24,000 bases of DNA, taken from an uncultured Thermoplasmatales archaeon (GTDB lineage: Archaea > Thermoplasmatota > E2 > DHVEG-1). A program made the translations under genes and the position numbers. The DNA lies in NCBI GenBank assembly GCA_964615235.1, contig CAZTMK010000015.1, positions 31,439 through 55,438 of the forward strand, written 5' to 3'. Positions 2,563 through 17,400 of this stretch are shown here, piece after piece; positions within the stretch are counted from its first letter, which is position 1; each line of letters starts with the position of its first letter. The notes below the pieces were generated by a model. It ran no database searches and was not told the DNA's origin. It saw nothing but the letters and a program-made list of their open reading frames with translations.

Positions 2563-3000
2563 CTATAAATAATCAAATTTCTTTGTGCTGTAAAATGCAT
2601 CCTTTGCATTCATCTGGCTAACCAACTGATTAAATTCGGTTTTAATTTCATCTACAATTTTTTTTGATAAAAACTTATCTGTTTTTAATTTTAAACAGGG
2701 CAAATCTTCAACATTTCCTTGCAATCTGCAAACAATAGGGCGAACAGGATAAATCAAGCACCCATCATTTTTCAGATATGGACATCTCATTTTATTGCTT
2801 TTAAATTCATCAATTGACCAAACAATATAATCCAAATTGTTCTGCTCTAGGTATTCCCTAATAATGATTTCTTCTGGTTTAAACCAAACAATAGGTCCAC
2901 AGCAACTGTGGCAGTGAAGACAGGGAAAATTGTCAGGTATCTTTGCATAAATTTTGTTTAGTCTTTCTTTTATTTCATTGTCTCTTAACATCGATTCCAT
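2563..3000 (-). CDS. YkgJ-family cysteine-cluster (CxxCxxCC) protein
   Basis: 145-aa ORF with FPCLHCHSCCGP (CxxCxxCC) and a second cluster MRCPYLKNDGCLIYPVRPIVCR. This is the typical UPF0153/YkgJ zinc/iron-chelating domain pattern. Confidence 0.8.
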   Translation of the reverse strand: MESMLRDNEIKERLNKIYAKIPDNFPCLHCHSCCGPIVWFKPEEIIIREYLEQNNLDYIVWSIDEFKSNKMRCPYLKNDGCLIYPVRPIVCRLQGNVEDLPCLKLKTDKFLSKKIVDEIKTEFNQLVSQMNAKDAFYSTKKFDYL

Positions 3001-3114: not shown

Positions 3115-3399
3115 ATGTTATCGAAAATACCAATAAACCTTGAAAAAATTAGGCCAGAAGACATTGACAAGGAAATTTTAAGAGCCGCCTTAATTGCGGA
3201 ATTAGATGCAATTAATCTTTACGAAGAGATGGCAGCATTGGCCAAAAACAAAAATATAAAAACAGTTTTACTTGATGTGGCTAAAGAAGAAAAAGAGCAT
3301 GTAGGCGAGTTTCAGACACTTTTATTAATTCATGATAAAGAACAAGTCGAGGAATTAAAAAGTGGGAAAGAAGAAGTTGAAGAACTAATTGGAAAATAA
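3115..3399 (+). CDS. EncFtn-like / rubrerythrin-like mini-ferritin
   Basis: 94-aa ORF. AELDAINLYEEM ... AKEEKEHVGEF matches the two-helix di-iron ligand pattern (E...Y, ExxH) of encapsulated-ferritin-type proteins. A GGGGAG SD-like element lies upstream. Confidence 0.75.
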   Translation: MLSKIPINLEKIRPEDIDKEILRAALIAELDAINLYEEMAALAKNKNIKTVLLDVAKEEKEHVGEFQTLLLIHDKEQVEELKSGKEEVEELIGK

Positions 3400-3563: not shown

Positions 3564-4559
3564 TTAAGATACAATGACAGGTATTTCTAAAATGCCTGCA
3601 AATATCGTCAATATAGCAAAACCCAGTGCAAAGAAAATATACTCTACGTACATAATAGACCAAGCATGAATATTTTCAAGGGTCTTACTTTCTTCACCTT
3701 TGAGCATTAAGTAGCATACAAAGCAAGAAACAAACGTCATAAGTGTTAACGGCCAAAGGTAATAGGCAAGTAGCCCCATATCAATGAAAACTGGAATAAA
3801 TGCAAACGGGAAAAACATAAAAGGAAATGCGATTAAAGCCGATTTTTTAACCCCATAAGTGTTTACCAAGGTTTTCGTACCTGTCATTTGATCGGCTTTT
3901 ATATCAACTATGTCTTTTGTGGTCATTCCACCAATAAAATACACCATGGCAATAAATCCGATGGTTAATGGTAGTGGGTGAAAGGGATTGCCAAAAACAC
4001 TCCAAGATGCCAAAATTCCAAGAAGACCACGAGGAATTGCTATCCAAATCTGATTAATAAACAAATATTTCTTTATTCTAGGTGGAAGCGAATAGGTTAC
4101 GGTAAATAACATTATAAGAAAGACAAACGCTCCAAAATATGCATTAATTGTTACAGCTCTAATTAAAGCAAAAAGGTAGAATATATATGCCAGGCTCTGG
4201 GCCTCTTCAGGTCTGATAATGCCTCTGGGAATCGGTCTATAGGGTTTTGATATCTTGTCGGATTCGTAATCAGTGGCTTGATTTAGGGAATTAGATGCAG
4301 CGTTTACTAATGCCAAGGTTAGGCTTGCGTTTCCTGTGGTAACCCACCAGTCGCTCGGTATATTTGTTTTGCTGAAAACCAATCCTGCAACAACAATTGA
4401 CATTGATACAATAAAAGGGGCAGCAAGGGTAAATGGCCGAAGAAGATCAATATATCCTCTAATATGTTTTGAAAGTAACCGTGTTTTGGCATACGGTTCT
4501 TTCATTGTGAGCTTACCAAAATCTAAATGTTTACCTTTTTTTGCTTTGGCAGTCATCAT
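3564..4559 (-). CDS. UbiA-family prenyltransferase (paralog 1; ChlG/homogentisate-prenyltransferase-like first motif)
   Basis: 331-aa polytopic membrane ORF. First Asp-rich motif is LNQATDYESDKISKPYRPIPRG. Second motif is KDIVDIKADQMTGTKTL. Confidence 0.9.
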   Translation of the reverse strand: MMTAKAKKGKHLDFGKLTMKEPYAKTRLLSKHIRGYIDLLRPFTLAAPFIVSMSIVVAGLVFSKTNIPSDWWVTTGNASLTLALVNAASNSLNQATDYESDKISKPYRPIPRGIIRPEEAQSLAYIFYLFALIRAVTINAYFGAFVFLIMLFTVTYSLPPRIKKYLFINQIWIAIPRGLLGILASWSVFGNPFHPLPLTIGFIAMVYFIGGMTTKDIVDIKADQMTGTKTLVNTYGVKKSALIAFPFMFFPFAFIPVFIDMGLLAYYLWPLTLMTFVSCFVCYLMLKGEESKTLENIHAWSIMYVEYIFFALGFAILTIFAGILEIPVIVS

Positions 4560-4839
4560 CTCCTAATATCTGATAAACCATTATATGCTTTTTCCAAATC
4601 ACAAGAATTCTTTATTCTTGGTTAATTTTCCTGAAGCTTTGCAAAGTAAATCATTTAAAATTAGAACGGAAAGAAGATTTTTCCGGTTAACACTATAATA
4701 TCAAGGCTAATTTGTTCAATAAACTATTTTTTTTTAGAAAAAATATTATTTTGAACATACTTTTTGCGATAAAGCTTTTATAATATAATGAAATTTATTT
4801 ATTTGGAGGAATTGCTAAAAGATAATTGGAGGCAAAAAT

Positions 4840-5295
4840 ATGAAAAGAAAAATTATTGGTTTTTTAGTTTGTATGCTATTTTTAATGCAGATTATTCCAA
4901 TATCCATGGGATTAGCCAATGATGTAGAAAATACCTTAAATGAATCTGAGCCAGAATTTGAAGTTGGACTTTATCCTGGCGTTTATTCAGGCGTTTTTAA
5001 TAATTTTTTACCCTTTGGTAGTCTGCGGATATCGGTAAAAAATATTGGTGATGAAACTGCTCATAATGTAACGCTTATCAATTTAAGTATTGATGAAAAT
5101 GTGCTATACAACAGTCGTGTTACAGAATGGAAAAAAGACATCGAACCAGGTCAGACAATAAAACAAAATCCTTCTGGTATGTTTGTTGGTTTTGGAAGAT
5201 TCAATGCCACAATGACTGTCACATGTGATGAAGGGGTAATTGGTACAGGAAGTAGTAGTGGATTTATCTTTGGTATTGTAATATTTGTTCCTTAA
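4840..5295 (+). CDS. small secreted protein with CARDB-like beta-sandwich
   Basis: 151 aa. GGAGG lies upstream. Signal peptide MKRKIIGFLVCMLFLMQIIPISMG. The SVKNIGDETAHNVTL strand pattern is typical of CARDB-type domains. The C-terminus GFGRFNATMTVT...GFIFGIVIFVP resembles the C-terminus of the 1232-aa protein. Confidence 0.7.
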   Translation: MKRKIIGFLVCMLFLMQIIPISMGLANDVENTLNESEPEFEVGLYPGVYSGVFNNFLPFGSLRISVKNIGDETAHNVTLINLSIDENVLYNSRVTEWKKDIEPGQTIKQNPSGMFVGFGRFNATMTVTCDEGVIGTGSSSGFIFGIVIFVP

Positions 5296-6683
5296 AACTG
5301 GAGAATATCGTTCAGTTTACGGGCAGAATTAAGGGCACAATTGAATCCTATCCCCATTGCTTTTACGGAATCGCCTATTAAAAACAAATTTTCAACTGGA
5401 GTCTTTATTTCAGGTTTTTCGTTATCAATTGTCTTTGCTACCCCATCAAGATGCCATATACTGGGATAAATTGCCCAGTTAAGATGTGAATGATAATCCG
5501 GAATTAAAATTTCTAGATTTTTGTCCATTAAGCCTTTAAGTTTTTCTAAAGTTGTGCTGTTTCTGGCTTCATCCGGTGTACAGATTATGTATGATTGGAT
5601 TAGATGACTGTTTTGGGGACAAACATGTGCTTTTTTACTGGCAGTCATAAAATCTATCATGCCAACTGCATCTTTTCCATCAACGCCAATATTTCTTTCT
5701 ATAAAATGAAAAGTTTTTCCAATCAGTTCATCAGGACAGCTTGATAGAGAATAATATGCGCATAAACTACCTGTACCCTTCAATGATTTTATGTATTTTA
5801 CATATTCTGGGGGAAAATTACTTTCATCTGCAAATTTAAAAAGATCCTGAACCAAGGCATTTGAAACAATTAAATCAAAGTTTATTTCTTCATCGTCAAC
5901 AACTAATCCAGTGGCTTTACCATCCTTTATTATTATTTTTTTGACTGATTTGTTTAATTTGATTTTTCCTCCGCATTTTTTTATTATGATTGCAAGTTTA
6001 TTATGAATATTTGAAAGTCCCTTAATTGGATATCCGCAAGGCTTTGATCCCTTGTACAAGTTACGTTGAGACCTGAACATCTCACCTGTCGAAATTTTAT
6101 CAAGATTATTTACTGTAGTAATCGATCGGGAAAATATCTCAAGAATAAGTGTCATTTTACCCTTACCATATTTTTTTATTGTTTCGGTAATAGAGACACT
6201 ATCAAGCTGCCTTAAAGTATTTTCAGATGCAAATAAAAGCCGAAGGATATTTGGAAGTATCTTTAATTTATCAAATCTTGAAAGAAAAGGAAAATCGTAA
6301 CCATCTTTTTTTACAAGTCCTACGAAGGACTCCATAAAATCGACATGTTCACCAAATTCAGATAATAAAGTATTTACGTTTGATAAAACCCCTCCACCGA
6401 TTGCATGATATCCAAGATCTAACTTGTAACCATCCAACATATGTTTGTTAAAAATCGTATCTAGGTCAGGCTCGGATTTGTATACTTTCATATTAAATCG
6501 AGACAAAACATCTACATAATCCTTTGCAGAAATGCCAGAAAAATTTTCAAAGGTAAAAGCCCTACCACCGATAAATGATTCTTTTTCAAAAATAGTTACA
6601 TCAAATCCCTTTTTAGAAAGTAATGCGCCTGCAGTCAGTCCACCGATTCCGGCTCCGATAATTCCAATCTTTTTTCTTTGCAT
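5292..6683 (-). CDS. CrtI/phytoene-desaturase-family FAD-dependent oxidoreductase
   Basis: 463 aa. The N-terminal dinucleotide fold is KIGIIGAGIGGLTAGALLSKKGFDVTIFEKESFIGGRA. The C-terminal LFLIGDSV motif and the length fit the amine-oxidase/phytoene-desaturase family. Confidence 0.85.
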   Translation of the reverse strand: MQRKKIGIIGAGIGGLTAGALLSKKGFDVTIFEKESFIGGRAFTFENFSGISAKDYVDVLSRFNMKVYKSEPDLDTIFNKHMLDGYKLDLGYHAIGGGVLSNVNTLLSEFGEHVDFMESFVGLVKKDGYDFPFLSRFDKLKILPNILRLLFASENTLRQLDSVSITETIKKYGKGKMTLILEIFSRSITTVNNLDKISTGEMFRSQRNLYKGSKPCGYPIKGLSNIHNKLAIIIKKCGGKIKLNKSVKKIIIKDGKATGLVVDDEEINFDLIVSNALVQDLFKFADESNFPPEYVKYIKSLKGTGSLCAYYSLSSCPDELIGKTFHFIERNIGVDGKDAVGMIDFMTASKKAHVCPQNSHLIQSYIICTPDEARNSTTLEKLKGLMDKNLEILIPDYHSHLNWAIYPSIWHLDGVAKTIDNEKPEIKTPVENLFLIGDSVKAMGIGFNCALNSARKLNDILQF

Positions 6684-6760
6684 TTTACTAAAGGGCTGCG
6701 AATATCTGCTATTTTATAACATTTTCCTAGTCAATCCAATATCGGAATTAATATTGCATA

Positions 6761-8008
6761 TCAAATTCTAAATGCTTGCTTTAAATATCCAATTGCATAT
6801 CGTCTAAAAACCTTCCACTTGTATTGTCGAAGGGGCAATTTTCCTATCATAATTTTTAAAAAAAGATCTGAAAGAACATCATCTTTTGTAGCAACTTTAA
6901 AAATATTTTCATTTGGCCTGTTTCTTTGGTTTTTCGCTAGATTGTAAAAGGCGTAAATATCTTTTCCAAACTCTTTCATCCATAGTTTTTGATATAAGGA
7001 TAACAGATTTGCATCAAAATTTTCGTAGTTTGATGCCTTTTCTATTACAATTGATGCAATTTCTCCAGAAACCATTGCATAATATATGCCCTCCCCACTA
7101 AATGGATTAATAAAACCTGCAGCATCACCAACCAAAATTGTTCTGTTACAATATGTTTGCTTGAGAGGAACAATCGGAAGAGATCCTCCATGATATCGAT
7201 TGATTTCCAATTCCTCTGGAATGATTTTTAATTTCTTCAAAGTTGAAAAGAAATTTTTGTATAAATTTACAAAATTTATTTTGGGCCGATTTTTTGGCCG
7301 ATAGCCGACTTCCCCAATTCCAATATTTAGATGTTTATTTTTTGGAAATACCCAGCCGTATCCATAGATATTTTGAAATCTAGATAATATGCTTACAAAA
7401 CGCTCTCTACCAGCAATTTCATCTATTGTTTTTTCATCAACTTCATACTCGTTGTATATACAAATTCCTGTCCCTTCGCCACTCTTTCTTAGTCCTGTTT
7501 TTTCTGCTATTTTACTGAAAACTCCATCTGCGCCAATTACAATATCACAAGAAATTGATGTGCCGTCATTCAAAAAAACCAATGCTTTGTCATTTGTAAT
7601 TTCTACATTTACCACGGCTTTTCCGTCAGCAAAATCTACGCCTTTTTCAACTGCCAGATCCACAAGATTTTTGTCAAATTTTTTTCTCAGGGTCATTGCT
7701 AAAATTGGCTCGTGATCCCTTACTACAATTTTGTGATTTAGAGAAGAGGAATAAGCATAACCTCCATAAGAATATGAATCAACAAAATTTTCGTTGTCAA
7801 TATAGGGGTAGCGAGTTAAGATTTGGTAAGGTAAACCGCCACCACAAGGTTTGTCACGAGGAAATTTTTCTTTATCTATAAGATTAACTTTGAATCCTTT
7901 CTCGGAAAGAAATTTCGCAGCTGTTGAGCCTGCAGGCCCTGCGCCTACAATACAAACATCTGTTTTTTTTGCCATATTACATTCGTGGTTTGAAGAGTTT
8001 TTCTCCAA
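6761..8008 (-). CDS. geranylgeranyl reductase family flavoprotein
   Basis: Motifs DVCIVGAGPAGSTAAKFLSEKGFKV, KPCGGGL, LRKKFD and GDAAGFINPFSGEGIYYAM. The longest frame starts at 8008 and overlaps the upstream UbiA gene by 32 nt. An alternative ATG at 7975 (MAKKTDVCIVG...) sits 1 nt after that gene's stop. Confidence 0.9.
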   Translation of the reverse strand: MEKNSSNHECNMAKKTDVCIVGAGPAGSTAAKFLSEKGFKVNLIDKEKFPRDKPCGGGLPYQILTRYPYIDNENFVDSYSYGGYAYSSSLNHKIVVRDHEPILAMTLRKKFDKNLVDLAVEKGVDFADGKAVVNVEITNDKALVFLNDGTSISCDIVIGADGVFSKIAEKTGLRKSGEGTGICIYNEYEVDEKTIDEIAGRERFVSILSRFQNIYGYGWVFPKNKHLNIGIGEVGYRPKNRPKINFVNLYKNFFSTLKKLKIIPEELEINRYHGGSLPIVPLKQTYCNRTILVGDAAGFINPFSGEGIYYAMVSGEIASIVIEKASNYENFDANLLSLYQKLWMKEFGKDIYAFYNLAKNQRNRPNENIFKVATKDDVLSDLFLKIMIGKLPLRQYKWKVFRRYAIGYLKQAFRI

Positions 8009-8981
8009 TCAACGGTGCAAAACTAATATACCAGCCTATAGGGAAAACAATCAAAATTATTGTAATCGTTTCACCAACTGTAGAGAGTAACGTGATTGGT
8101 ACAAGCGAATATCGCAAAAACGATTGAATTCCTATATATTTTCTTATCCGGCTTCTGTCAAATTTTTTAATTGTCAACAATCTTAAGTTGAAAAATAGTA
8201 CACCAGACGATCCTAGTACAAGTATTGCCAATTGAAAAATGCTATAAGATACATTAAAAAATACAAATGGCGAAAATAAAAGAAAAATTGAAAATAATCT
8301 AATACCCATACCAAAAATCTTGAAGCTGTTGGGAATAAAAATATTTTCACCCTTGACTTTTACACCGACATTTAAGGCAATGTTACTAACACCCATTTTG
8401 TAATCATGATCAGCATCTTTTATTCCTCCCTCTACTGCATTCATATGAAGAGTCTGATTAAAGGTCAAAATAAAAATTATCCAAGTCAAAATTCCGGGAG
8501 CACCAAATGAAAGCGCTCCAAATAAAAAAACAAATGACATTGATATTGCTACAAAAAAATCAGAACCTGCAATTTTTTTACCATATATGTTATAAAAACT
8601 TCCGAGAATGCCTGCGATTATTATACAAATTAATGCCATGAATTTGTATTCATCAAGAGTTTTTCCCCTCCACAGAATAAAAATAAATAAAAATGTTAAC
8701 AAAATTAAAAATATACTTATAGTAAGGGCACTTTTTTTTGAAATGTCTCCGCTTACCAAAGGCTTACCATGAAGTTCTGGGATTAATTTGTCAAGCTCAA
8801 CATCGGAATAATCATTTAGAATAAAACCGTATATTGCAGCAAAAGCACCTATTATAAAAAGTAAAGACAAGCTGTAGAGATCTACAACCCCAACGGTAAT
8901 GGCTGCAATTATTGTAGGAGTGGCAAGTGCAGCGAGACCGGGAATGCGTAGCAATCTGGCATACGCAGCAACTTTATTCAT
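7977..8981 (-). CDS. UbiA-family prenyltransferase (paralog 2)
   Basis: 334-aa polytopic ORF. Motifs LNDYSDVELDKLIPELHGKPLVSG and IKDADHDYKMGVSNIAL. The C-terminal signature KKFDRSRIRKYIG...LVPITLLS...KPRM is shared with paralog 3. Confidence 0.9.
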   Translation of the reverse strand: MNKVAAYARLLRIPGLAALATPTIIAAITVGVVDLYSLSLLFIIGAFAAIYGFILNDYSDVELDKLIPELHGKPLVSGDISKKSALTISIFLILLTFLFIFILWRGKTLDEYKFMALICIIIAGILGSFYNIYGKKIAGSDFFVAISMSFVFLFGALSFGAPGILTWIIFILTFNQTLHMNAVEGGIKDADHDYKMGVSNIALNVGVKVKGENIFIPNSFKIFGMGIRLFSIFLLFSPFVFFNVSYSIFQLAILVLGSSGVLFFNLRLLTIKKFDRSRIRKYIGIQSFLRYSLVPITLLSTVGETITIILIVFPIGWYISFAPLIGEKLFKPRM

Positions 8982-9030
8982 ATTTGTTAGAAGAAATGCT
9001 GGTATTAAATATTTTTCTAAATTTTGGTTA

Positions 9031-9330
9031 AAACCTAATAAAATTTATCTAGAATTACTAAAGCGAGAGTGGGATATTATCTACGTTTACAGATTAGATA
9101 GATGGGGTAGAACGCTTAAAGATTTAATCAAGGAGATTGAAACTTTGGTAAACCATAAGGTTAATTTTGTGTCATTAACTTAGAACATTGATTTATCAAC
9201 AGTAACTAATAAGTTACAATTTCATATTATTGGTCCATTTGCAAAATTTGAACGACCAATCGTAAGTGAAAGAACAAAACTTGGTCCAGAGCATGCAAGG
9301 AAACAAGGAAAAAAATTGGCAGACCATAAG
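9031..9330 (+). pseudogene. serine recombinase (resolvase/invertase) remnant, N-terminally truncated with in-frame TAG
   Basis: The frame reads KPNKIYLELLKREWDIIYVYRLDRWGRTLKDLIKEIETLVNHKVNFVSLT*NIDLSTVTNKLQFHIIGPFAKFERPIVSERTKLGPEHARKQGKKLA. This matches the resolvase core pattern (..LDRxGR...l...gv.f.s..e.iD......l.f.i...a.fER..i.eRt..G...Ar..G). The catalytic-Ser N-terminus (~60 aa) is missing. A stop lies at 9181-9183. The GRP/HTH tail is degenerate. Confidence 0.7.
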
Positions 9331-9481
9331 GTTCAAGAGACAAAAAAGAAGAAAGAGCGGTTACTATCTCAGATATGCAAAGAATTAGTCATTTTAATGT
9401 ATCATTTGTTCCTTTATAATTTCGTAACATTTAAATTAAATTATATTATTGTGTCATAAAATCCAAAGGGGGTAAAGTAAC

Positions 9482-10474
9482 ATGGAAGGAGGAATGTTTA
9501 GAAAAAGTATAATTGTAGTATTAGTGATGCTAATAGCCAGTACAGTAATACTTCCTACAATAACGGTGATAAGTGAAGAGTTAAAAAATGACATAGTTGT
9601 TCCGAGGGACTATCAAACCATCCAAGAAGCAATCGATAATGCAAATCCGGGGGATTCAATCTTAGTCTGGAGCGGCATTTATCAGGAAAATATCCATATT
9701 TATCAGGGTAAAAACAATATTCAAATTATTGGAAATTACTCTGATAGACCCGTTATTGATGGCGGTAGAAATTGTGATGTTGTAAAAATAGTTGCCAATA
9801 ATATAATTTTAAGTAATTTTTATATTAGAATGAGTGGCGAACTTAGTAATGGTATATCAATTCGCGCTCAAGGAATTCAAATAGAAAATTGTTGTATAAC
9901 CAATAATTTTCAAGGTATTTTTATTAATTCACAGGTCTCCTTCAATATAAATATAAGTGATTGTGAGATTGTTAATAATAGTTATTGGGGAATATTGATA
10001 GAAGATAATTGTAATGATATTACAATAAATAATTCTGTTATATCACAAAATAAAAATGGAATTACTGCAAAAGATTCACAGCTTATAAGTATTATCGACA
10101 ATCAAATTAATGAAAACGATTGGATAGGAGTCGCTATTGAGGGAAAATCTTCACACGATAATTTAATTGATTCAAACGACATTATCAATAACGACATTGG
10201 TATATATTTTTGGTGTTCTGGGCGTAATAACATTGTTAGTGGAAATAATATAATTGACAATGACTCTCCAATTGTATTCAAATGGTCTAGCAGACAGAAA
10301 TTATCTGGAAATTATTGGGAACCGAGAAGATATCCTTCATTTGTGAATATTTTATATAACTTATTAAATAAACCAATTCCGTACTACATAATCGGGCATG
10401 GTGGATATCCACCAGCATTCTATCTACCTCCATTTATCTACATTGATAGCGAACCAAAAATGGAAAGAATATAG
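9482..10474 (+). CDS. secreted right-handed parallel beta-helix repeat protein (NosD/PbH1-like)
   Basis: 330 aa with an N-terminal hydrophobic anchor/signal. YQTIQEAIDNANPGDSILVWSGIYQENI is followed by many N/I/G-rich ~22-aa coils (NNIILSNFYI, IENCCITNN, ISDCEIVNN, ITINNSVISQN, IIDNQINEN, LIDSNDIINN, IVSGNNIIDN). The start may be ATG 9482 or 9494. Confidence 0.85.
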   Translation: MEGGMFRKSIIVVLVMLIASTVILPTITVISEELKNDIVVPRDYQTIQEAIDNANPGDSILVWSGIYQENIHIYQGKNNIQIIGNYSDRPVIDGGRNCDVVKIVANNIILSNFYIRMSGELSNGISIRAQGIQIENCCITNNFQGIFINSQVSFNINISDCEIVNNSYWGILIEDNCNDITINNSVISQNKNGITAKDSQLISIIDNQINENDWIGVAIEGKSSHDNLIDSNDIINNDIGIYFWCSGRNNIVSGNNIIDNDSPIVFKWSSRQKLSGNYWEPRRYPSFVNILYNLLNKPIPYYIIGHGGYPPAFYLPPFIYIDSEPKMERI

Positions 10475-10541
10475 AGCTCTATAATAATGAATTATCATAC
10501 AAAATTCATTGGCTTTAGTAATAAATACACATTAAAATTTT

Positions 10542-10560
10542 GAGGGTAAAAAAATCCCTC
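10542..10560 (+). terminator. possible stem-loop between convergent genes
   Basis: GAGGG-taaaaaaat-CCCTC followed by T-rich sequence (cttaattttctttat). It lies 68 nt after the beta-helix gene stop. The stem is short, so this is weak. Confidence 0.3.
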
Positions 10561-10637
10561 CTTAATTTTCTTTATATTATCTCTTTATTTCACAATCTAG
10601 TAAAATAGTGTTCAATTTTTTAGAATTTATGATGATG

Positions 10638-11672
10638 TTACATTGTTTTTGGCTGAAGCAATGTTTTATGTAAAATTAAATTTGATAAAATAAAGCCAAT
10701 ACCTGGGAAGAACATCAGTATTCCCGCCCAGGGATTTAGACTCATTAGCATTACTGGAACAAGTGCGAAATTTATCATATAATGGCTTCCTATGTACTTT
10801 CTTGCTTTTTCTCTCTCAAATTTTTTCATTGAAAGTAGTCTATAAGAAAGAATAAACATCAAAATTGCAACAAATGCAAGTATTGCCCATTGTATGTATT
10901 GTAATGTAGCATTTTGTGAAAAACCTGTAATTATGAAGAAAGGTAAAAACACTACAACAATGTCGCATATCTGGATAAAAAATGCTAGTGCTTTAAACTT
11001 GTTAGATACAATTAGTAAACCATCAGAAATTCTTACACCTAGTTTTATTGCCGCTGTTTTTGCACCCTTTACATAGTCATTTTCAACATCCTTCATCCCT
11101 CCTGCGACAATTTGCATAAACAGCACTTGAATGGCACCTAGAATACAAACAATCCAGCCAATAAAAGAAATATCAGAAAAACTCCTTACTGCTTCTCCAT
11201 TAGAATATCCGTAAAATGCACCATATAAAATTAAGAAAAATATTCCTATAGAAACCAAAATGTCCATGAAAGGCAATTTTTTGCTTATTAGATCGTATAG
11301 AACTATAAAAAATGCTGAAGCTGCGATTACTACAGTTGGAATAAAATTTGAAAACCTCATTACCAGATAACCTGCAATAATAAATGCAATAAACATTGAC
11401 ATTATTGCAAAAGCCTTCGCATTTCTCATTGAAATTGTCCCGCTTATCAATGGTCTATCACTGATTTCCTTTGATGACTCATCTAGCTTATAATCGATAA
11501 TGTCATTGAAAACAAATCCAAAAGTATGACCAAAAAAACCTACTAGAAACAAAAGTAGTAGAATGAAAATGTCATACTGTTGCATAGCAATTGCACCCAT
11601 AACTGGTGAAACCCCTGTCAAAACTGCATTAAATGAACGGGCAAGTTTGAGATATTCTCGGATTTTAACCAT
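10638..11672 (-). CDS. UbiA-family prenyltransferase (paralog 3)
   Basis: 344-aa polytopic ORF. Motifs FNDIIDYKLDESSKEISDRPLISG and MKDVENDYVKGAKTAAIKLG. The C-terminal signature KKFEREKARKYIG...LVPVMLMS...QPKTM parallels paralog 2. Confidence 0.9.
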   Translation of the reverse strand: MVKIREYLKLARSFNAVLTGVSPVMGAIAMQQYDIFILLLLFLVGFFGHTFGFVFNDIIDYKLDESSKEISDRPLISGTISMRNAKAFAIMSMFIAFIIAGYLVMRFSNFIPTVVIAASAFFIVLYDLISKKLPFMDILVSIGIFFLILYGAFYGYSNGEAVRSFSDISFIGWIVCILGAIQVLFMQIVAGGMKDVENDYVKGAKTAAIKLGVRISDGLLIVSNKFKALAFFIQICDIVVVFLPFFIITGFSQNATLQYIQWAILAFVAILMFILSYRLLSMKKFEREKARKYIGSHYMINFALVPVMLMSLNPWAGILMFFPGIGFILSNLILHKTLLQPKTM

Positions 11673-11785: not shown

Positions 11786-12397
11786 ATGAAAATACTAGCA
11801 GCAGCAGATATTCATGGTTCGCAATACCGTTTAAATTTAATTTTATCAAATGTTTCTAAATACTCACCCGACTTAGTTATCATTTGTGGAGATATTACCC
11901 AATTCGGACCTGGCGAAGTGGCTACCCAATTTCTCAATCAAATTCCTGTTGAAACACTTGCACTTACCGGCAACATTGATCCATCGGAGGTAAACGGGGC
12001 AATCGATGAAAGCAGAGCAACAAATGTAAATATGAAAATAGTAAAGAAAGACTCATTTACATTTGCTGGAGTTAGCGGTGTTGATGAACGTCAAACAAAG
12101 GAATTTGCAGAAAATTATGGAAAACTAATTGATAAAGATACTATTTTAATAACACATGTCCCTCCCCACGGTTTACATGATAGGGTTTTTCTTGGGATGC
12201 ATTCTGGAAGCAAGGAGTTAAGAAAATTAGTAGACAACCGTCATCCAAAACTTGTATTGTGCGGTCATATTCATGAAGACCCTGGTTTTACAAAAATTAA
12301 TAACACTGTCGTTGTAAATTGCAGTCTTGGTAAAAGAGGAGAAGGTGCACTTATTACTTTTGAGAAAGATAATTTAGATGTTCAAATGATAGAGTAA
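11786..12397 (+). CDS. calcineurin-like metallophosphoesterase
   Basis: 203 aa with the ordered motifs ADIHG, CGDITQFG, GNID, THVPPHG and CGHIHE. GAGGA lies upstream. Confidence 0.85.
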   Translation: MKILAAADIHGSQYRLNLILSNVSKYSPDLVIICGDITQFGPGEVATQFLNQIPVETLALTGNIDPSEVNGAIDESRATNVNMKIVKKDSFTFAGVSGVDERQTKEFAENYGKLIDKDTILITHVPPHGLHDRVFLGMHSGSKELRKLVDNRHPKLVLCGHIHEDPGFTKINNTVVVNCSLGKRGEGALITFEKDNLDVQMIE

Positions 12398-12399
12398 TT

Positions 12400-14079
12400 T
12401 CATTTTTGTTGATTTTGAATCTTGGCCCATGTATCCCTAAGTCCTACGGTTTTGTTAATTATCAAGGAATTCTTCTTTGTATCTGAGTCAATGCAGAAAT
12501 AACCAAGGCGCTCGAATTGAAAACGATCAAAAGGTTTTAGATTCTTTATTGATGGTTCCACTTTACAAGAATTTAAAATTTTTAATGAGTCTGGATTGAT
12601 AAATTCCTTGTAATCAACTCCTTTATGCCCGGTTGGGTTTTCTACGGTAAATAATTTTTCGTATAACCTAATTTCTGCATCAATTGCATGAGGTCCAGAG
12701 ACCCAGTGAATAGTTGATTTTACGCGTCTTCCGTCTGGTGCATATCCACCTTTTGTGACGGGATCATAGGTACATCTGAGTTCAACAACTTTGTCACCCT
12801 CTTTAATTGCTTCTTGACAGGTAATAAAATAAGCATATCTTAGTCTAACCTCTCTACCAGGTGCAAGCCTGTAGAATTTTTTTGGAGGATTTTCCATAAA
12901 ATCGTCTTGTTCAATAAATAAGGTTTTTGAAAATGGAACCATGCGAGTTCCAGCATCAGGATTTTCTGGGTTCATTATTGCCTCTACTTGTTCTACTTTA
13001 TCATTTGGATAGTTATCTATTACTACTTTTAATGGATTTAAAACCCCCATAAATCTGGGAGCAGTTTTATTTAAATCATTTCTTACGCAATGTTCCAAAA
13101 ATTCCATTGAAATTATGCTGTTTACCTTGGCTACCCCAATGCGGCTACAAAAATCTCTAATTGATGAAGGAGAGTATCCTCGTCGTCTCATCCCACTTAT
13201 TGTAGGCATTCTGGGATCATCCCAGCCTTTTACTAGACTACTTTGGACCAACTCAAGAAGCATTCTCTTGCTCATAATTGTGTAGGTTAAATTAAGTCTT
13301 GCAAATTCTATCTGCTGGGGATGGTAAACTCCAAGTTGATCAAGAAACCAGTCGTATAAAGGTCTGTGATTTTCAAATTCCAAAGTGCAAATTGAATGAG
13401 TAATACCTTCAATTGAATCTTCAAGCCCGTGTGCCCAGTCATACATGGGGTATATGCACCACTTATCCCCGCTTCTATGGTGGGATTGATGAAGAATTCT
13501 ATACATGACAGGGTCTCTCATATTGAGATTTGGATGAGCCATATCGATTTTTGCCCTAAGGACCTTTTCACCGTCAGCAAATCCACCTGCCTTCATCTTT
13601 TCAAGTAATTCTAGGTTTTCCTCTATGGATCTATTGCGATATGGGCTTTCTTTTCCAGGCTGTGTTAATGTACCACGATTCTTACTTATTTCATCAGAAG
13701 GTGAATCATCAACATAAGCTTGTCCTTGTTTTACCAACTGAACTGCATATTCATACATTTTGTCAAAATAATCTGATGCAAAAAGTAGACGATCTCCCCA
13801 ATTAAATCCAAGCCATTTTACATCTTCAATTATAGATTTTACGTACTCTTGTTCCTCCTTGGAAGGATTGGTATCGTCAAATCGTAAGTTACACAAACCA
13901 TTGTACTCTTCAGCGATTCCAAAATTTAGACAAATTGATTTTGCATGACCGATGTGAAGATAACCATTTGGTTCTGGTGGAAAACGTGTGTGAACTCTTC
14001 CATCGTATTTGTTTGTTCTTAGGTCCTCATCTATTATTTCTCTTATAAAATCACGTGGAGATTCATCTTTATTTTCCAT
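12400..14079 (-). CDS. glnS: glutamine--tRNA ligase (GlnRS), bacterial-type with no N-terminal extension
   Basis: 559 aa. The class I HIGH motif is in [25 protein letters not shown] and the KMSKS-type motif in TIMSKR. Long strings are identical or near-identical to E. coli GlnRS as I recall it ([44 protein letters not shown]). GGTGAT SD lies upstream. Confidence 0.95.
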
Positions 14080-14475: not shown

Positions 14476-17400
14476 ATGAAAAATAAATATTTATTAATAA
14501 TAATATGTACGATAGTGTTTTTTGCTATTTTGGCAGCAAATACAGTAAATGCAGTAACAATTGAACCAAATCCAGAATTACAAGCAACATGTGGCATTGA
14601 TATTGCCCTTGTTCTTGACAGTTCGGGAAGCATTAGTTCCTCAGATATGGTCGTCATGAAAAATGCATTTATAGGATTTGTTAATATCCTATTACCTAAC
14701 ACTCCTACACAATTTAGTGTCATCGATTTTGATGATAATGCGGTAATATTGCAATCATTTACTAATAATAAAACAGACATTATTAATGCAATCAATATGC
14801 CTACATCAGGTGGTTGTACAAACTGGGAGGATGGTCTCATAAAAGCAAATGACACCTTTGATCCCAGAGTTGATAAACCAGACCTTGTTTTGTTTGCATC
14901 GGATGGTAACCCCAATACTGTTTATGGCGGATCGCCATGTGGTACATCTGAATCCGCTGCAGTTTCCGCAGCAGTTGCGATTGCTAATACAATGAAATTA
15001 GATGGCATTCGTATTATCACTCTTGGAATTGGAGATGATATAGATTCAGCTAATCTAATCGCGATATCAAGTTCAGATGCATATTACGATGTTGATGAAT
15101 TTGATGAACTTGAAGATACGCTTGAAACTATTGCCAGCGAATTGTGTGGGGGAACAATATCAGTACAAAAGAAAGTAGATGGCGAACCAGAAGCAGGTTG
15201 GGAATTTACCCTGACCGTAACAAATGGTACAGCAACACCAAATCCTGGGATAACAGATGATTTGGGATTTGTTGTTTTTGATATTAATATTACCCAAGGT
15301 TCCGAGGCAATTGTAAATATTACTGAGACTCTAAAAACTGGTTATCTGTTTGATAGTGTATACGCCCAAAACTGTACAGGTGCTATAGTTGGAACTCCGG
15401 GCACTAATGCAATATATGGTATACCAGTGAGGGGAGATTGCGCGATCTATTGTCTGTTCAATAATACTAATCTAACTGGTTTGGATGACACACCACCTGT
15501 TACAAATAAAACTGTTAGCGATCCAAAGTATGGACCAAATGATGAATGGGTCACGGAATCGACTGAATTCAATCTAACCGCATTTGATAATGAGTCAGGT
15601 GTCAATGCAACCTATTATAGAATCTGGTATATGGGTTCATGGAGTCTTTGGGAGGTATATGATGGGAATTTCACACTAGATGGAAATTGTATGCATTACA
15701 TTGAGTTTTATTCTGTAGATAATGCTGGTAACATAGAACCCGTGCAAAACCAAACTCACTATGTTGATGAGATGGCGCCAATAACTAATCCTTATCCACC
15801 TGAATTTGGAATTCCATACACAACGATTGAATATGAGGGAGAACAATATGTTGTTATCAATTGTACTACACCCATGTGGATCAATGTAACAGATCCAAGC
15901 TGCGGTATTGGAGTTTTAAATATTTCATATTCTGTTTGGTATTATGATACATCATCTTCAAGTTATGTAAAGATACCTGGTTCAGAAAGGGAAGTACATG
16001 ATAATGATATTTATGATCTTGATCCTGATCTGGGCGAGATATCTGTGTCACTAACCATTGATGAGGAATGTTTGCATCAAGTAAGATGGACGGTTTTTGA
16101 CCTGTTTGGGCATTTCGCAATTTATAATTATTCATTTGCAGTTGACTGCACACCGCCTACTATAACAAAAACACACCCAATTTGCTATATTCCAATAGAT
16201 CCTGATACAGGATGGATTGGAGTCTGTAACGAGATAACACTTAGTGCAATAGATGGTGGTACTTTTCCATGTATATCTGGTGTTGATGATATATTTTGGG
16301 GTTTCACATATGAAGGTACATGGCATCCTATAGACCCATTTGATAGTTATGGTGGCAACACTGTTGGTTATTTTAAAGATGATAAATGGTGGTATACATA
16401 TAGTCCTTCACTTAATGTACATTGGCTTGAAACAGGCTTGCATGTTTTGGAATATTGGGCAAAAGATAAAGTAAACAATATGGGTCCAACACATACACAG
16501 ACCTATTGGGCTAACATATGTCAACCGGAAATATGGGTGGATGATGATTATACAAGTTCCACGCCTGGCTGGCGGATAACTCATTTCAACAGTATTCGTT
16601 ATGGTTTGGAATGGCTTGAATCTGGGGGAACTGCTCATATCCATAAAGGCATTTATCTGGAAGATATTGTTGTTGATGATGTTCCATGTTGTGATAACAC
16701 CGGTATTACAATAGAGGGAGTTGAGTGTTATCCTTCACTTCCAAAACAAAGTGGAGCAGTTATTGTCGGAACTATTACAATTAAAGTAAATGACGTAAGT
16801 ATTAATTGTCTAATGTTTGAGCCCACAAGTGATCCGGCAATTACTGTAGAGGGAAGCGGAGCGGTAATTCAACATAATATATTCTTTAAGGAATGCTTAG
16901 CTGATGCCACAGCCATTGAAAACATGGGTCAATCAATGGTTGAAGCACGTTACAACTATTGGGGAGCACCAAACGGCCCCTCAGGAGGAGTTATAGATCC
17001 AGTTACAGGAATGGAAGCAGATGGCTATGGAACGATTCTGCTTGGAGATAATATTAGATTTGATCCTTGGGCAGGAGTACACGCACAGATAAAAGCATCA
17101 AAAACAGAAGTTGAACCTGGACAAAGCATAGTATTCAGCTCAGAACCATACAGCTTTGCATACTATATCGATGGTACACCAAATGACTATCACGTACTAT
17201 GGGATTTCGGTGATGGAGAGTACAGCCAGGACAAGACAATAGGCCATGTATTCGACATGCCAGGTACCTACCAAGTAAGCTTAAGGATAAGAGCAGGTGA
17301 CACGTCATTACATCCGGGTTTCATGTATGACTGGGATTATGTAACCATTCATGTATTAGAGCCGGGAGCACCATTGACGGTAAGTGCTGATGGCCCTGGA

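Follow-up and report, generated by a model that had tools for sequence, protein, structure and literature searches.

Introduction

In its gene logic, the locus analyzed here resembles haloarchaeal crtD-lyeJ-cruF, but its range extends to lineages of dark, hot, anoxic settings. A second precedent is MA0127, an archaeal CrtI homologue that adds water to a geranylgeranyl chain in an ether-lipid precursor, according to passages on Mori 2015 in PMC10821996 and PMC12777485. In this study, we followed up an earlier note on three UbiA-superfamily prenyltransferase genes interleaved with two flavoprotein genes. We consider there to be good reason to regard the locus as a functional isoprenoid-tailoring module. 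It is apparently undescribed so far; our literature search found no paper describing the cluster.

Results

The window, meaning the whole 24,000-nucleotide stretch that was analyzed, is DNA of a low-GC sediment archaeon in the Thermoplasmatota, of the MBG-D/Thermoprofundales type. The five ORFs of the cluster all lie on the minus strand at the coordinates first proposed, except for one start codon, and they form three transcription units. UbiA3 (10638..11672, 344 amino acids [aa]) and UbiA1 (3564..4559, 331 aa) each stand alone, while the core operon runs from UbiA2 (7977..8981, 334 aa) through a geranylgeranyl-reductase (GGR) paralogue (6761..7975, 404 aa) to the flavoprotein Crt (5292..6683, 463 aa). 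The 1-nt spacer between the UbiA2 stop and the GGR ATG suggests translational coupling, and 77 nt separate GGR from Crt. Two secreted-protein genes on the opposite strand and a resolvase pseudogene part the three units, so that co-regulation of the cluster is not guaranteed in the window. A metallophosphoesterase gene at 11786 is divergent from UbiA3.

The gene for a NosD/pectate-lyase-like secreted beta-helix protein (9482..10474, plus strand; PF05048 and PF13229) was inserted recently between UbiA3 and UbiA2 and lies outside the pathway. It occurs only in the window, in Logan contigs L001 and L082, which are identical or near-identical to the window, and in L004; in relative L083 (82 to 92% identical), UbiA3 directly adjoins UbiA2. 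A serine recombinase (resolvase) remnant (9055..9390, plus strand) matches PF00239 with an E value of 8.4e-20 over model positions 63 to 145 of 145 only, lacks the N-terminal catalytic part, and has an in-frame TAG at 9181-9183 in the translation of the 8983 frame. It is probably a scar left by the insertion event that parted UbiA3 and UbiA2. The small secreted protein of 151 aa (4840..5295, plus strand) had no Pfam or NCBIfam match and has no family assignment. Its gene is convergent with Crt, overlaps it by 4 nt, and parts Crt from UbiA1 in this genome; it is kept only in L004 (66% identity), and the Crt-UbiA1 junction of the other relatives lacks it.

Profile searches placed all three prenyltransferases above the PF01040 gathering score of 34.2: UbiA1 with 114 bits (E value of 7.8e-33), UbiA2 with 65 bits (1.1e-17), and UbiA3 with 73 bits (2.6e-20). 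All three are polytopic in a hydropathy scan, and every Asp-rich motif that had been quoted for them is present. In UbiA1 these are NQATDYESD (aa 93-101, 4257-4283) and KDIVDIKAD (aa 215-223, 3891-3917), the latter of the DxxDxxxD type; in UbiA2, NDYSDVELD (aa 56-64, 8790-8816) and KDADHDY (aa 188-194, 8400-8420); and in UbiA3, NDIIDYKLD (aa 56-64, 11481-11507) and KDVENDY (aa 194-200, 11073-11093).

UbiA1 belongs to the DGGGPS/ChlG/HPT-like prenyltransferases, with NCBIfam scores of 112 bits for PRK12884, 85 for the DGGGPS model PRK12882, 69 for ChlG, and 57 for HPT, all below cutoff. A third motif of the DxxDxxxD form, the top PDB match (DGGGPS, 6m31, 8.8e-11), and the JGI annotation of its orthologues as DGGGPS or 4HB-prenyltransferase mark it as a DGGGPS-like enzyme, and as such it may be a core ether-lipid enzyme. 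At nine loci of relatives, UbiA4, a paralogue with 51% identity, follows a few kilobases on.

UbiA2 and UbiA3 are 30% identical and are paralogues within a large unnamed UbiA clade. The AF2 model of UbiA2 has about 10 transmembrane helices (pLDDT of 96.7), and the solved fold closest to it is that of MjDGGGPS, 6m31 (E value of 2.4e-8, 19% identity), which is also the best PDB match of UbiA3 (5.9e-9). Among NCBIfam models, UbiA3 matches PRK12884 best, with 76.7 bits where the cutoff is 269, and this model likewise gave the strongest named-model match (E value of 1.2e-24) in an NCBIfam scan of 99 representatives of the clade. UbiA2 has 555 homologues, with at least 64% identity among the 120 matches listed, and its family profile retrieved 1,090 representatives of 50% clusters. 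None of the three UbiAs reached the NCBIfam equivalog cutoff for DGGGPS, UbiA/Coq2, MenA, heme O synthase, ChlG, HPT, or MqnP, and MenA models gave no match. By these cutoffs, orthology of any of the three with the first six of those enzymes is ruled out.

GGR scored 205.8 bits against TIGR02032 (cutoff of 158.8) and carries the motifs GAGPAG, PCGG, YGWVFP, and GDAAG of an FAD-dependent enzyme family, while falling far below three DGGGPL-reductase equivalog cutoffs (104 versus 580, 96 versus 780, and 68 versus 700). The family originally given to the gene therefore holds. Its start is likely the ATG at 7975 and not 8008; the former lies 1 nt past the UbiA2 stop, and independent gene calls agree. 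The GGR clade is found only within the cluster, at 10 distinct loci. At each of them it adjoins UbiA2, immediately precedes Crt, or does both, and it invariably precedes Crt where both of its neighbors can be seen. GGR is thus an accessory in a minority of loci.

Crt is an FAD oxidoreductase of the CrtI/PDS/GDI fold, with an N-terminal GAGIGG...E...GGR signature and matches to PF01593 (66 bits, cutoff of 19.8) and PF13450. It scored only 54.6 bits against crtI_fam TIGR02734, below the cutoff of 238.1, so its earlier assignment to the CrtI/phytoene-desaturase family is valid only at the superfamily or fold level. Foldseek searches with the AF2 model (pLDDT of 81) returned 3ka7 (1.7e-24), 4rep (6.7e-22), and the PDS 5mog (4.7e-20); 4rep and 5mog are carotenoid desaturases. 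A family profile searched against the PDB found the Methanosarcina mazei oxidoreductase 3ka7 (1.2e-20) and Pyrococcus furiosus PF1083 (3nrn, 2.9e-19) ahead of the gamma-carotene desaturase CrtD (4rep, 3.4e-15) and CrtI (7e-6). Crt is thus nearer to non-carotenogenic archaeal proteins than to CrtD or CrtI.

A survey of synteny in relatives, set beforehand as a test, found conservation. Among 78 species-level loci, 72 were informative for the order of UbiA2 and Crt, and in 62 of these UbiA2 is followed by Crt, with a gap of at most 12 nt or overlapping ORFs in all but one locus. Crt is present in 69 of 75 related loci, 35 loci have a UbiA3 orthologue (54 to 92% identity) upstream of UbiA2, 31 have a UbiA1 orthologue downstream of Crt, and the order UbiA3-UbiA2-Crt-UbiA1 recurs in about 30. 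Divergence from the window co-varies for UbiA2 and Crt across loci (Spearman coefficient of 0.49, n = 60). The pair is lineage-wide, with 64 to 75% identity in most species-level relatives among the matches listed, and occurs also in the JdFR-43 and HyVt lineages, which inhabit deep-sea hydrothermal sediments (PMC9585477). The cluster is common to Thermoprofundales/MBG-D-type Thermoplasmatota, in dozens of uncultured species. The part of it that does not vary is the pair of UbiA2 and Crt; the five-gene set proposed earlier, with GGR at so few loci, is not the conserved unit. Chance adjacency of three housekeeping UbiA genes is ruled out, the order being kept in dozens of species-level genomes.

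Pfam scans, and tblastn with accessory families from relatives, did not find GGGPS, polyprenyl synthase, CarS, CruF, or radical-SAM genes in the window, as the earlier note had said. Relatives' clusters, unlike that of the window, do contain CruF-, CrtC-, CruG/HpnB-, and CrtM-like genes: 32 copies of PF07143 CrtC-like genes at 22 loci, PF04240 CruF-like genes at 4 loci, a GT2 glycosyltransferase that matches HpnB (213 bits) and CruG (196 bits) over the full length, and a CrtM-like synthase (fold match to 8is6, 2e-4). Additional UbiA families and paralogues bring relatives to as many as seven UbiA genes per 13 kb.

Discussion

The conserved neighborhood agrees with the proposal of a dedicated module; that its product is non-core is doubtful, given a UbiA2-Crt pair so widespread and strongly conserved. 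As substrates we tentatively favor membrane lipid precursors that bear geranylgeranyl groups, on either ether-lipid or polyprenyl chains, over light-related carotenoids. The kinship of Crt with proteins of non-carotenogenic archaea, the MA0127 precedent, DGGGPS as the nearest solved structure for each UbiA, and the pair's presence in hydrothermal-sediment lineages all incline us this way. The hydratases and glycosyltransferase of relatives fit an alternative, tailoring of C45/C50 carotenoids, equally well; to our knowledge, those accessory families have been described solely in pathways to carotenoids or hopanoids.

The third motif of UbiA2 and UbiA3, KD-x3-D, is a point against ether-lipid or polyprenyl-chain substrates: it is like that of UbiA/Coq2-type aromatic prenyltransferases and unlike the DxxDxxxD of DGGGPS. 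Other alternatives are a quinone pathway, in which UbiA2 would prenylate 4-hydroxybenzoate or DHNA, and core lipid synthesis, in which UbiA2 or UbiA3 would act as DGGGPS.

Under the favored reading of geranylgeranyl-bearing precursors, the catalytic steps, all inferred from superfamily membership, would begin with the membrane-embedded UbiAs, whose two Asp-rich Mg2+ sites would ionize a prenyl diphosphate and move its prenyl group onto a lipophilic acceptor. UbiA1 would carry out a DGGGPS-style transfer onto a glycerol-type hydroxyl, and UbiA2 and UbiA3 would use a putative different acceptor. Thereafter the two peripheral flavoproteins would determine which bonds of geranylgeranyl-type chains are saturated, GGR by C=C reduction and Crt by desaturation, isomerization, or hydration, by likeness to other archaeal CrtI homologues. 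In relatives, the CrtC-/CruF-like hydratases and CruG/HpnB-like glycosyltransferase may add hydroxyl and sugar groups to the terminal isoprene unit. The product of the cluster is probably an undescribed membrane isoprenoid and, if the favored reading is true, it would be a tailored one specific to this lineage.

RESULTS

Conservation of the UbiA2-Crt gene pair

All five minus-strand ORFs that the earlier note had read as an isoprenoid or ether-lipid tailoring locus are present in place, with their UbiA motifs, and three of them, UbiA1 (3564-4559), UbiA2 (7977-8981), and UbiA3 (10638-11672), belong to PF01040. The other two are GGR (6761-7975), a geranylgeranyl-reductase-family gene, and Crt (5292-6683), a gene for a CrtI-fold FAD protein. 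We scanned one genome per GTDB species with the UbiA2 alignment, called ORFs at each locus, and labeled them by blastp. The scan yielded 78 loci, nearly all with Thermoplasmata-type titles. Among the 75 with a UbiA2 ortholog, Crt lies directly downstream in 58, the order is UbiA2-GGR-Crt in 4, and the contig edge intervenes in 3, giving UbiA2 followed by Crt (GGR between them allowed) at 62 of 72 informative loci. With one exception, the two genes are spaced by 12 nt or less or overlap. The longer arrangement UbiA3-UbiA2-Crt-UbiA1 is found on a single strand at about 30 loci, including the closed genomes CP070798, CP070724, and CP070712. Gene order is kept across 34 to 94% protein identity in dozens of genomes, and the identities of UbiA2 and Crt to their window counterparts covary across loci (Spearman 0.49, n = 60).

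The UbiA2-Crt pair is lineage-wide and highly conserved; column identity averages 78% across 19 species. Deeper lineages, including the hydrothermal JdFR-43 and HyVt metagenome-assembled genomes (MAGs), retain the pair alone, and its neighbors there are unrelated housekeeping genes. The divergent GlcD/GlcF-like genes upstream of the pair in these lineages were set aside as housekeeping genes of the D-lactate/glycolate oxidase type. The GGR clade was found at 10 distinct loci, always beside UbiA2 and/or immediately upstream of Crt, and a metagenome scan with GGR as the query added two further loci where it is placed likewise; neither the species-level loci nor the metagenome scan contained a member of this clade outside the cluster. 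Most genomes have no GGR in the cluster. Taken as a whole, the cluster has the character of a terpenoid-tailoring island, variable in content outside a constant UbiA2-Crt core.

Interruption of the cluster in the window

In the window, the cluster is divided into three transcription units, namely, UbiA3, UbiA2-GGR-Crt, and UbiA1. Within the central unit, spacers of 1 and 77 nt separate GGR from UbiA2 and from Crt, respectively. A small plus-strand gene for a secreted protein stands between Crt and UbiA1, and the gap between UbiA3 and UbiA2 holds a plus-strand gene for a beta-helix protein. The 500 bp that separate UbiA2 from the beta-helix gene contain a truncated serine recombinase (resolvase) pseudogene (9055-9390, plus strand), which matches PF00239 only over model positions 63 to 145 and contains an in-frame TAG at 9181-9183. 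The interruption between UbiA3 and UbiA2 is recent because in L083, a close relative with 82 to 92% identity, UbiA3 abuts UbiA2 and the insertion is absent. The resolvase remnant implicates a mobile element in the interruption and is likely the scar of the insertion that split the two genes.

Family placement of the three UbiA proteins

UbiA1, UbiA2, and UbiA3 score 114, 65, and 73 bits against PF01040 (E values of 7.8e-33, 1.1e-17, and 2.6e-20), whose gathering score is 34.2, and the N-x3-D-x3-D and KD...D Asp-rich motifs are found in all three, which are polytopic proteins. None of them reaches an NCBIfam equivalog cutoff. Their top model, PRK12884, is an unnamed "prenyltransferase" and gives 112, 70, and 77 bits versus a cutoff of 269. 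The DGGGPS (EC 2.5.1.42) models PRK12882, PRK12883, and PRK12872 give at best 84.6, 40.9, and 46.9 bits versus cutoffs of 278 to 353, and the UbiA/Coq2 models TIGR01474, TIGR01475, and PRK12873 give no more than 41 bits versus 181 to 275. Scores for the heme O synthase (CtaB/CyoE) model TIGR01473 are 29, 20, and 36 bits (cutoff, 210), and the MenA models TIGR00751 and PRK06080 match none of the three at an E value of ≤0.01. UbiA1 is below the cutoffs for ChlG (69 versus 313 bits) and HPT (57 versus 226 bits); UbiA2 and UbiA3 give about 20 bits or no match with the ChlG, BchG, and HPT models. Roles in heme O, chlorophyll, MenA-type, and ubiquinone synthesis were rejected, given scores far under the cutoffs and missing pathway context. 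The earlier note had set its locus against the possibility of ordinary DGGGPS, MenA, and heme O synthase orthologs that are merely adjacent; scores beneath every equivalog cutoff, together with the conserved synteny, come down on the side of a locus.

UbiA1 is the most DGGGPS-like of the three in its motifs. The DGGGPS set comprises motif 1, a Y..K motif, and motif 3, D-x2-D-x3-D (PMC9385802), and UbiA1 has motif 1 (N..DxxxD), YSLPPRIK at the motif 2 position, and a DGGGPS/ChlG-type third motif, DxxDxxxD (KDIVDIKAD). Its best PDB match is the DGGGPS structure 6m31 (8.8e-11), and its orthologs are often named DGGGPS by JGI. A UbiA1 paralog that we call UbiA4, 51% identical, lies a few kilobases away in relatives.

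UbiA2 and UbiA3 are paralogs with about 30% identity. They have in common a C-terminal extension with a conserved FDR motif, which forms extra helices in the model, and the DGGGPS-type DxxDxxxD third motif is missing in both; the consensus of their clade at this position is KD-x3-D-x3-G (KDADHD in UbiA2 and KDVEND in UbiA3). Across 99 members of the clade, N56, D64, K188, and D189 do not vary; conservation of D60 and D193 is at least 90%. A profile of UbiA2 orthologs matched 1,090 representatives of 50%-identity clusters at an E value of ≤1e-3 and 114 at 1e-30. The clusters of ten distant representatives of the family had hardly any members with an organism name. When 99 full-length representatives of the clade were compared with NCBIfam, the strongest match to a named model had an E value of 1.2e-24, and the UbiA/Coq2 models reached 1.8e-20 at best. 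The AlphaFold2 (AF2) model of UbiA2 has about 10 helices (pLDDT, 96.7), and among solved structures it is closest to MjDGGGPS (6m31; E value, 2.4e-8; 19% identity), followed by AfUbiA, ApUbiA, and UBIAD1. The UbiA2 family profile retrieved nothing relevant from the PDB even at an E value of ≤10; only the structure-based search linked DGGGPS, AfUbiA, and ApUbiA. Judged by these sequence comparisons, UbiA2 and UbiA3 represent a sizeable clade without a characterized or named member.

The GGR and Crt flavoproteins

The earlier note had placed a GGR-family gene at 6761-8008. The family assignment holds, as the protein passes the TIGR02032 subfamily cutoff (205.8 versus 158.8 bits); the start does not, as independent gene calls and the sequence agree on an ATG at 7975, 1 nt past the UbiA2 stop codon. 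We located the motifs GAGPAG, PCGG (with its Cys), YGWVFP, and GDAAG in the protein, and YxWxFP is a GGR-family motif (PMC10821996). GGR is below the DGGGPL-reductase equivalogs NF041080, NF041160, and NF041385 (104 versus 580, 96 versus 780, and 68 versus 700 bits), and it has sub-cutoff matches to MenJ (102 bits) and BchP/ChlP (153 bits).

Crt matches PF01593 (66 versus 19.8 bits) and has the N-terminal FAD site GAGIGG...E...GGR. Its earlier designation as a CrtI/phytoene desaturase family member is thus sound for the superfamily and the fold but goes too far for the family, since the crtI_fam model TIGR02734 gives 54.6 bits versus a cutoff of 238.1. CrtD (63 versus 550 bits) and HpnE (51 versus 283 bits) are likewise missed, as are all other equivalogs of the CrtD and CrtN types. 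Conservation in the Crt family is close to that of UbiA2, with all 120 homologs listed being at least 64% identical, and the names given to its members are inconsistent. In the PDB, the family profile best matched 3ka7 (1.2e-20) and 3nrn (2.9e-19), the structures of a Methanosarcina mazei oxidoreductase and Pyrococcus furiosus PF1083, respectively, both uncharacterized, followed by the gamma-carotene desaturase 4rep (3.4e-15); CrtI (4dgk) was matched only via the N-terminal FAD motif. A Foldseek search with the AF2 model of Crt (pLDDT, 81) returned 3ka7 (1.7e-24), 4rep (6.7e-22), and the phytoene desaturase PDS 5mog (4.7e-20), and Rab-GDI/REP structures (6c87, 3cph, 1ukv, and 1vg0) followed at E values of about 1e-19, almost equal to those of the carotenoid desaturases. 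PF00996 (GDI) matches residues 213 to 274 of Crt weakly. This likeness of fold echoes a proposal that archaeal proteins of the PF1083 (3nrn) type are GDI/REP-like isoprenyl binders (PMC4915359). Another archaeal CrtI homolog, MA0127, leads to hydroxyarchaeol formation and not to desaturation (Mori et al. 2015, as cited in PMC10821996 and PMC12777485).

Accessory genes in related loci

In relatives, the cluster contains further tailoring genes, placed among the UbiA genes or next to them. Homologs of CrtC-type lipocalin hydratases (PF07143) are present in 32 copies at 22 loci, often immediately upstream of UbiA3. The PF04240 "carotenoid biosynthesis protein" family, to which CruF belongs, occurs at 4 loci, and a GT2 glycosyltransferase that aligns over its full length to HpnB (213 bits) and CruG (196 bits) occurs at 5. 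These CruF-, CrtC-, and CruG/HpnB-like proteins are all below equivalog cutoffs. A 340-aa protein with a class I terpenoid synthase fold, whose best profile match is CrtM (8is6, 2e-4), is found at 7 or 8 loci. None of these accessory families is present in the window, as the earlier note had observed for CruF. A tblastn search of plasmids with the CruF-like protein gave two Klebsiella matches only.

Relatives also have two extra UbiA subfamilies and more paralogs of the UbiA2/3 type; one related locus, L031 (1-13500), has seven UbiA genes in 13 kb. UbiA expansion is also seen at L028, L058, L081, L036, and L020, with at least six subfamilies overall (UbiA1 to UbiA4 and two that we call c23 and c35), and the expanded genes are interleaved with CrtC-like hydratases and the CruG/HpnB-like glycosyltransferase. 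A variant without the flavoprotein, L085 (6219-11989 of JGI Ga0272441_10000226), consists of UbiA3, a short 236-aa GT2, a UbiA2-like gene, a CrtC-like gene, a hexapeptide transferase, and UbiA1; the CrtC-like gene takes the place of Crt downstream of the UbiA2-like gene. Two radical-SAM/SPASM genes lie 2 to 5 kb downstream of this variant cluster.

An RND transporter of the MMPL/Patched type (about 1,125 aa, with a sterol-sensing domain) is encoded at 10 related loci. Together with an NAD-dependent epimerase, it lies 2 to 6 kb upstream of the cluster, upstream of UbiA3, at L002, L003, L010, L012, L014, L020, and L029. It could be a lipid exporter, and we did not count it in the cluster because MTHFR and DUF5981 genes intervene.

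Surroundings and host lineage

The 24-kb window has a GC content of 33.7%, and exact stretches of it are also present on two Logan contigs. Rfam and tRNA scans found no RNA elements in it. The closest homologs of its proteins are titled "MAG: Thermoplasmatales/Thermoplasmatota archaeon." L004, a MAG from Zodletone, has the gene order of the window and cluster genes that are 91 to 94% identical, and SG8-52-3, UBA202, JdFR-43, and HyVt-387 are among the related loci. PMC9585477 places the JdFR-43 and HyVt lineages in Thermoprofundales, formerly MBG-D, and describes these archaea as uncultured and ubiquitous in sediments.

A run of genes at 14476-18174 (plus strand), 18366-20357 (minus), 20602-22215 (plus), and approximately 22687-24000 (plus) encodes a secreted 1,232-aa protein with a VWA domain and three PKD domains, two C1 peptidases of the papain family (one has a PKD domain, and the window end truncates the other), and a secreted 537-aa protein without a Pfam family. 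These large secreted proteins are an extracellular protein degradation kit typical of MBG-D, and the papain-type peptidases and VWA/PKD proteins fit the Thermoprofundales/MBG-D lifestyle.

The minus-strand gene at 12400-14079 encodes a bona fide glutaminyl-tRNA synthetase (GlnRS; TIGR00440, 730 bits versus a cutoff of 426; NF011291, 849 bits), which is kept beside the cluster in L004 and L083 at 91 to 92% identity. Most archaea have no GlnRS and rely on transamidation instead, so the gene looks like a bacterial-type acquisition. A plus-strand gene at 1273-2346 encodes an aRF1/Pelota-like paralog with a C-terminal CxxC...CxxC pair (PF18854, baeRF_family10; E value, 6e-19); it scores 115 bits against the aRF1 equivalog (cutoff, 235) and is probably not a canonical release factor. 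A 94-aa rubrerythrin/EncFtn-like mini-ferritin (3115-3399, plus strand) is convergent with the 3' end of UbiA1 and adjoins a gene for a CxxCxxCC Zn/Fe-chelating-domain protein (2563-3000, minus strand). Neither gene showed a link to the cluster in relatives.

DISCUSSION

In this study, we delineated at the sequence level a conserved operon whose products belong to the UbiA, GGR, and CrtI-fold families, retain intact predicted catalytic motifs, and lie outside every named equivalog tested. Every part of the cluster belongs to a known superfamily. No description of the cluster was found in the literature searched, the coverage of which is incomplete; PMC9585477, the single relevant paper found, deals with a different cluster, for carotenoids and linked to heliorhodopsin, in Thermoprofundales subgroup E.

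We propose that the UbiA enzymes would move prenyl groups from prenyl diphosphates onto lipophilic acceptors, UbiA1 in the fashion of DGGGPS and UbiA2 and UbiA3 with an acceptor other than the DGGGPS-type acceptor of UbiA1. A new acceptor is suggested for the latter two because UbiA enzymes reportedly group according to acceptor (Hemmi 2004, as cited in PMC9385802) and their clade is unnamed. GGR would next reduce double bonds of the chain, and Crt may desaturate, isomerize, or hydrate them; in relatives, the hydratases and the glycosyltransferase would alter the terminal isoprene unit. The nearest relatives of Crt, the DGGGPS-like UbiA proteins, the coupled GGR, and the presence of the pair in dark, hot lineages lead us to lean, tentatively, toward geranylgeranyl-bearing membrane lipids as the substrates. 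It is possible, if more doubtful, that the UbiA2/UbiA3 clade has a new acceptor specificity and that, with Crt, GGR, and the hydratases and glycosyltransferase of relatives, it gives rise to an undescribed class of archaeal membrane isoprenoids, for example, with prenyl-elongated, partly saturated, and terminally hydroxylated or glycosylated chains.

A known enzyme to which Crt can be likened, by description only, is MA0127/MMP0146, a phytoene desaturase homolog that hydrates a geranylgeranyl chain to give hydroxyarchaeol. It, too, is an archaeal member of the CrtI superfamily, and it acts on lipid prenyl chains in non-carotenogenic anaerobes. The best relative of Crt by structure and sequence, 3ka7, is from M. 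mazei, with an identity of only about 20%. Reportedly, the 2015 work on MA0127 does not describe it as coupled to a UbiA gene.

The main rival to membrane lipid tailoring, which we consider unlikely, is a pathway for a bacterioruberin-like C45/C50 carotenoid or another acyclic carotenoid. UbiA2, UbiA3, and their paralogs would then be enzymes of the lycopene elongase type (LyeJ/CrtEb logic) that add C5 units to psi-ends, with Crt as a desaturase of the CrtD/CrtI type; relatives would build a C30/C40 backbone with the CrtM-like protein, hydrate it with the CruF- and CrtC-like proteins, and glycosylate it with the CruG-like GT2. Such a pathway has a parallel in gene order and families in the strongly conserved haloarchaeal cluster crtD-lyeJ-cruF (Haloarcula japonica; HVO_2526-2528), in which a UbiA gene likewise adjoins a gene for a CrtI-superfamily flavoprotein (PMC8305020). 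UbiA2 has a CrtI-fold neighbor in the window and at the 62 loci, and a PF04240 gene is present in 4 relatives but not in the window. The PF07143 and CruG/HpnB-like GT2 genes would also suit psi-end tailoring, as the CrtM-like gene within the cluster would suit backbone synthesis, and PMC9585477 reports bacterioruberin and zeaxanthin gene sets and CruF in Thermoprofundales subgroup E. Crt resembles the carotenoid desaturases 4rep and 5mog in its fold, but its scores are far under the CrtD, CrtN-type, and crtI_fam cutoffs, and its best relatives are from non-carotenogenic archaea. Unlike the haloarchaeal cluster, ours has several UbiA paralogs and not one, and a prenyl reductase coupled to UbiA2 is foreign to known carotenoid elongation. 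Its hosts include dark, hot, and anoxic-sediment lineages, with the pair in hydrothermal JdFR-43 and HyVt lacking carotenoid accessories nearby, and JGI names the genes ubiA, DGGGPS, or PPO, not lyeJ or crtD. The accessories of relatives match the families of bacterial psi-end tailoring (CrtC/CruF hydratases with CruG/CruC in purple and green sulfur bacteria and cyanobacteria) and hopanoid HpnB; however, they are absent from the window, they are below equivalog cutoffs, and they are joined with multiple UbiA enzymes, which the bacterial pathways lack.

Core ether-lipid assembly, as opposed to a side pathway, is a somewhat less probable explanation. The part of the housekeeping DGGGPS would fall to UbiA1 or UbiA4; UbiA2 and UbiA3 would make further ether bonds, for example, by replacing or complementing GGGPS or by accepting different chain lengths or backbones; GGR would saturate the lipids; and Crt would be an MA0127-like chain hydratase or a saturase. 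The motifs of UbiA1 and the JGI annotation of its orthologs are as expected from this, MjDGGGPS is the closest solved structure for all three UbiA proteins, and the UbiA2-Crt pair has the lineage-wide distribution and strong conservation of a core function. On the same axis, the DGGGPS equivalog scores of the three proteins (85, 41, and 47 bits) are under the cutoffs, and UbiA2 and UbiA3 depart from DGGGPS in their KD-x3-D third motif and helix-adding C-terminal extension. GGR shows the family motifs and exceeds the TIGR02032 cutoff, yet it is not an ortholog of any DGGGPL-reductase equivalog, and most genomes lack it in the cluster. Judged by cluster labels, GGGPS, CarS, and G1P dehydrogenase are nearby in none of more than 80 loci, and the variable content of hydratases, glycosyltransferases, and UbiA proteins resembles tailoring and not a fixed core pathway.

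Synthesis of a prenylquinone or chromanol-type cofactor is improbable. An aromatic head group would receive its prenyl chain from UbiA2 and UbiA3, GGR would work on this side chain in the manner of MenJ or ChlP, and Crt would serve as an additional oxidoreductase. UbiA2 and UbiA3 resemble UbiA/Coq2 in their third motif, the JGI family name is 4-hydroxybenzoate polyprenyltransferase, and TIGR01474 matches 80 of 99 family representatives at an E value of ≤1e-5; yet every score is far under its cutoff, and the MenA models have no match to the three window proteins. The logic of a prenyltransferase that attaches geranylgeranyl and a GGR-family enzyme that reduces it is likewise that of the phototroph pairs ChlG/BchG with ChlP/BchP and HPT with ChlP, and the sub-cutoff matches of GGR to MenJ and BchP/ChlP, of UbiA1 to ChlG and HPT, and of UbiA1 orthologs to HPT (up to 79 bits) are in keeping with it. 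Unlike in those pairs, there is no tetrapyrrole or homogentisate pathway context, and the cluster hosts are not phototrophs. Genes for UbiD/UbiX, methyltransferases, Mqn, and Men are found in neither the window nor the roughly 80 related loci, and the text of the Thermoprofundales genomics paper (PMC9585477) makes no mention of quinones or cytochromes.

Finally, that the UbiA, GGR, and oxidoreductase genes are unrelated, share no pathway, and are neighbors by chance, as might be read from the three transcription units of the window, parted by two unrelated opposite-strand genes and a recombinase remnant, is highly improbable, and this reading was rejected on the conserved synteny: gene order persists across dozens of genomes, the UbiA2 and Crt ORFs overlap or abut, the interrupting genes are recent insertions absent from L083, and the GGR clade was never seen outside the cluster.

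We know of no lipid or enzyme with a firm link to Thermoprofundales (MBG-D). The present work identifies a lineage-wide, tightly coupled prenyltransferase-flavoprotein operon within a variable belt of terpenoid-tailoring genes. UbiA2 and Crt form a minimal candidate set for expression that is small and directly testable and bears on the lipids of this dominant uncultured lineage of sediments. A product, once found, would give a function to a UbiA clade of more than 1,000 50%-identity clusters with no named member. It would do the same for the archaeal CrtI-fold family of the 3ka7/PF1083 type, which has solved structures and for which we know of no reported activity, and it might also yield a biomarker diagnostic of a major lineage in sediments. 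Were the product ordinary archaeol or a bacterioruberin analog, the value would be smaller, and the division of labor among UbiA paralogs would still be clarified. If instead an undescribed isoprenoid is made, its producer would be one of the most abundant uncultured archaeal lineages of sediments, and the compound could serve as a lipid biomarker.
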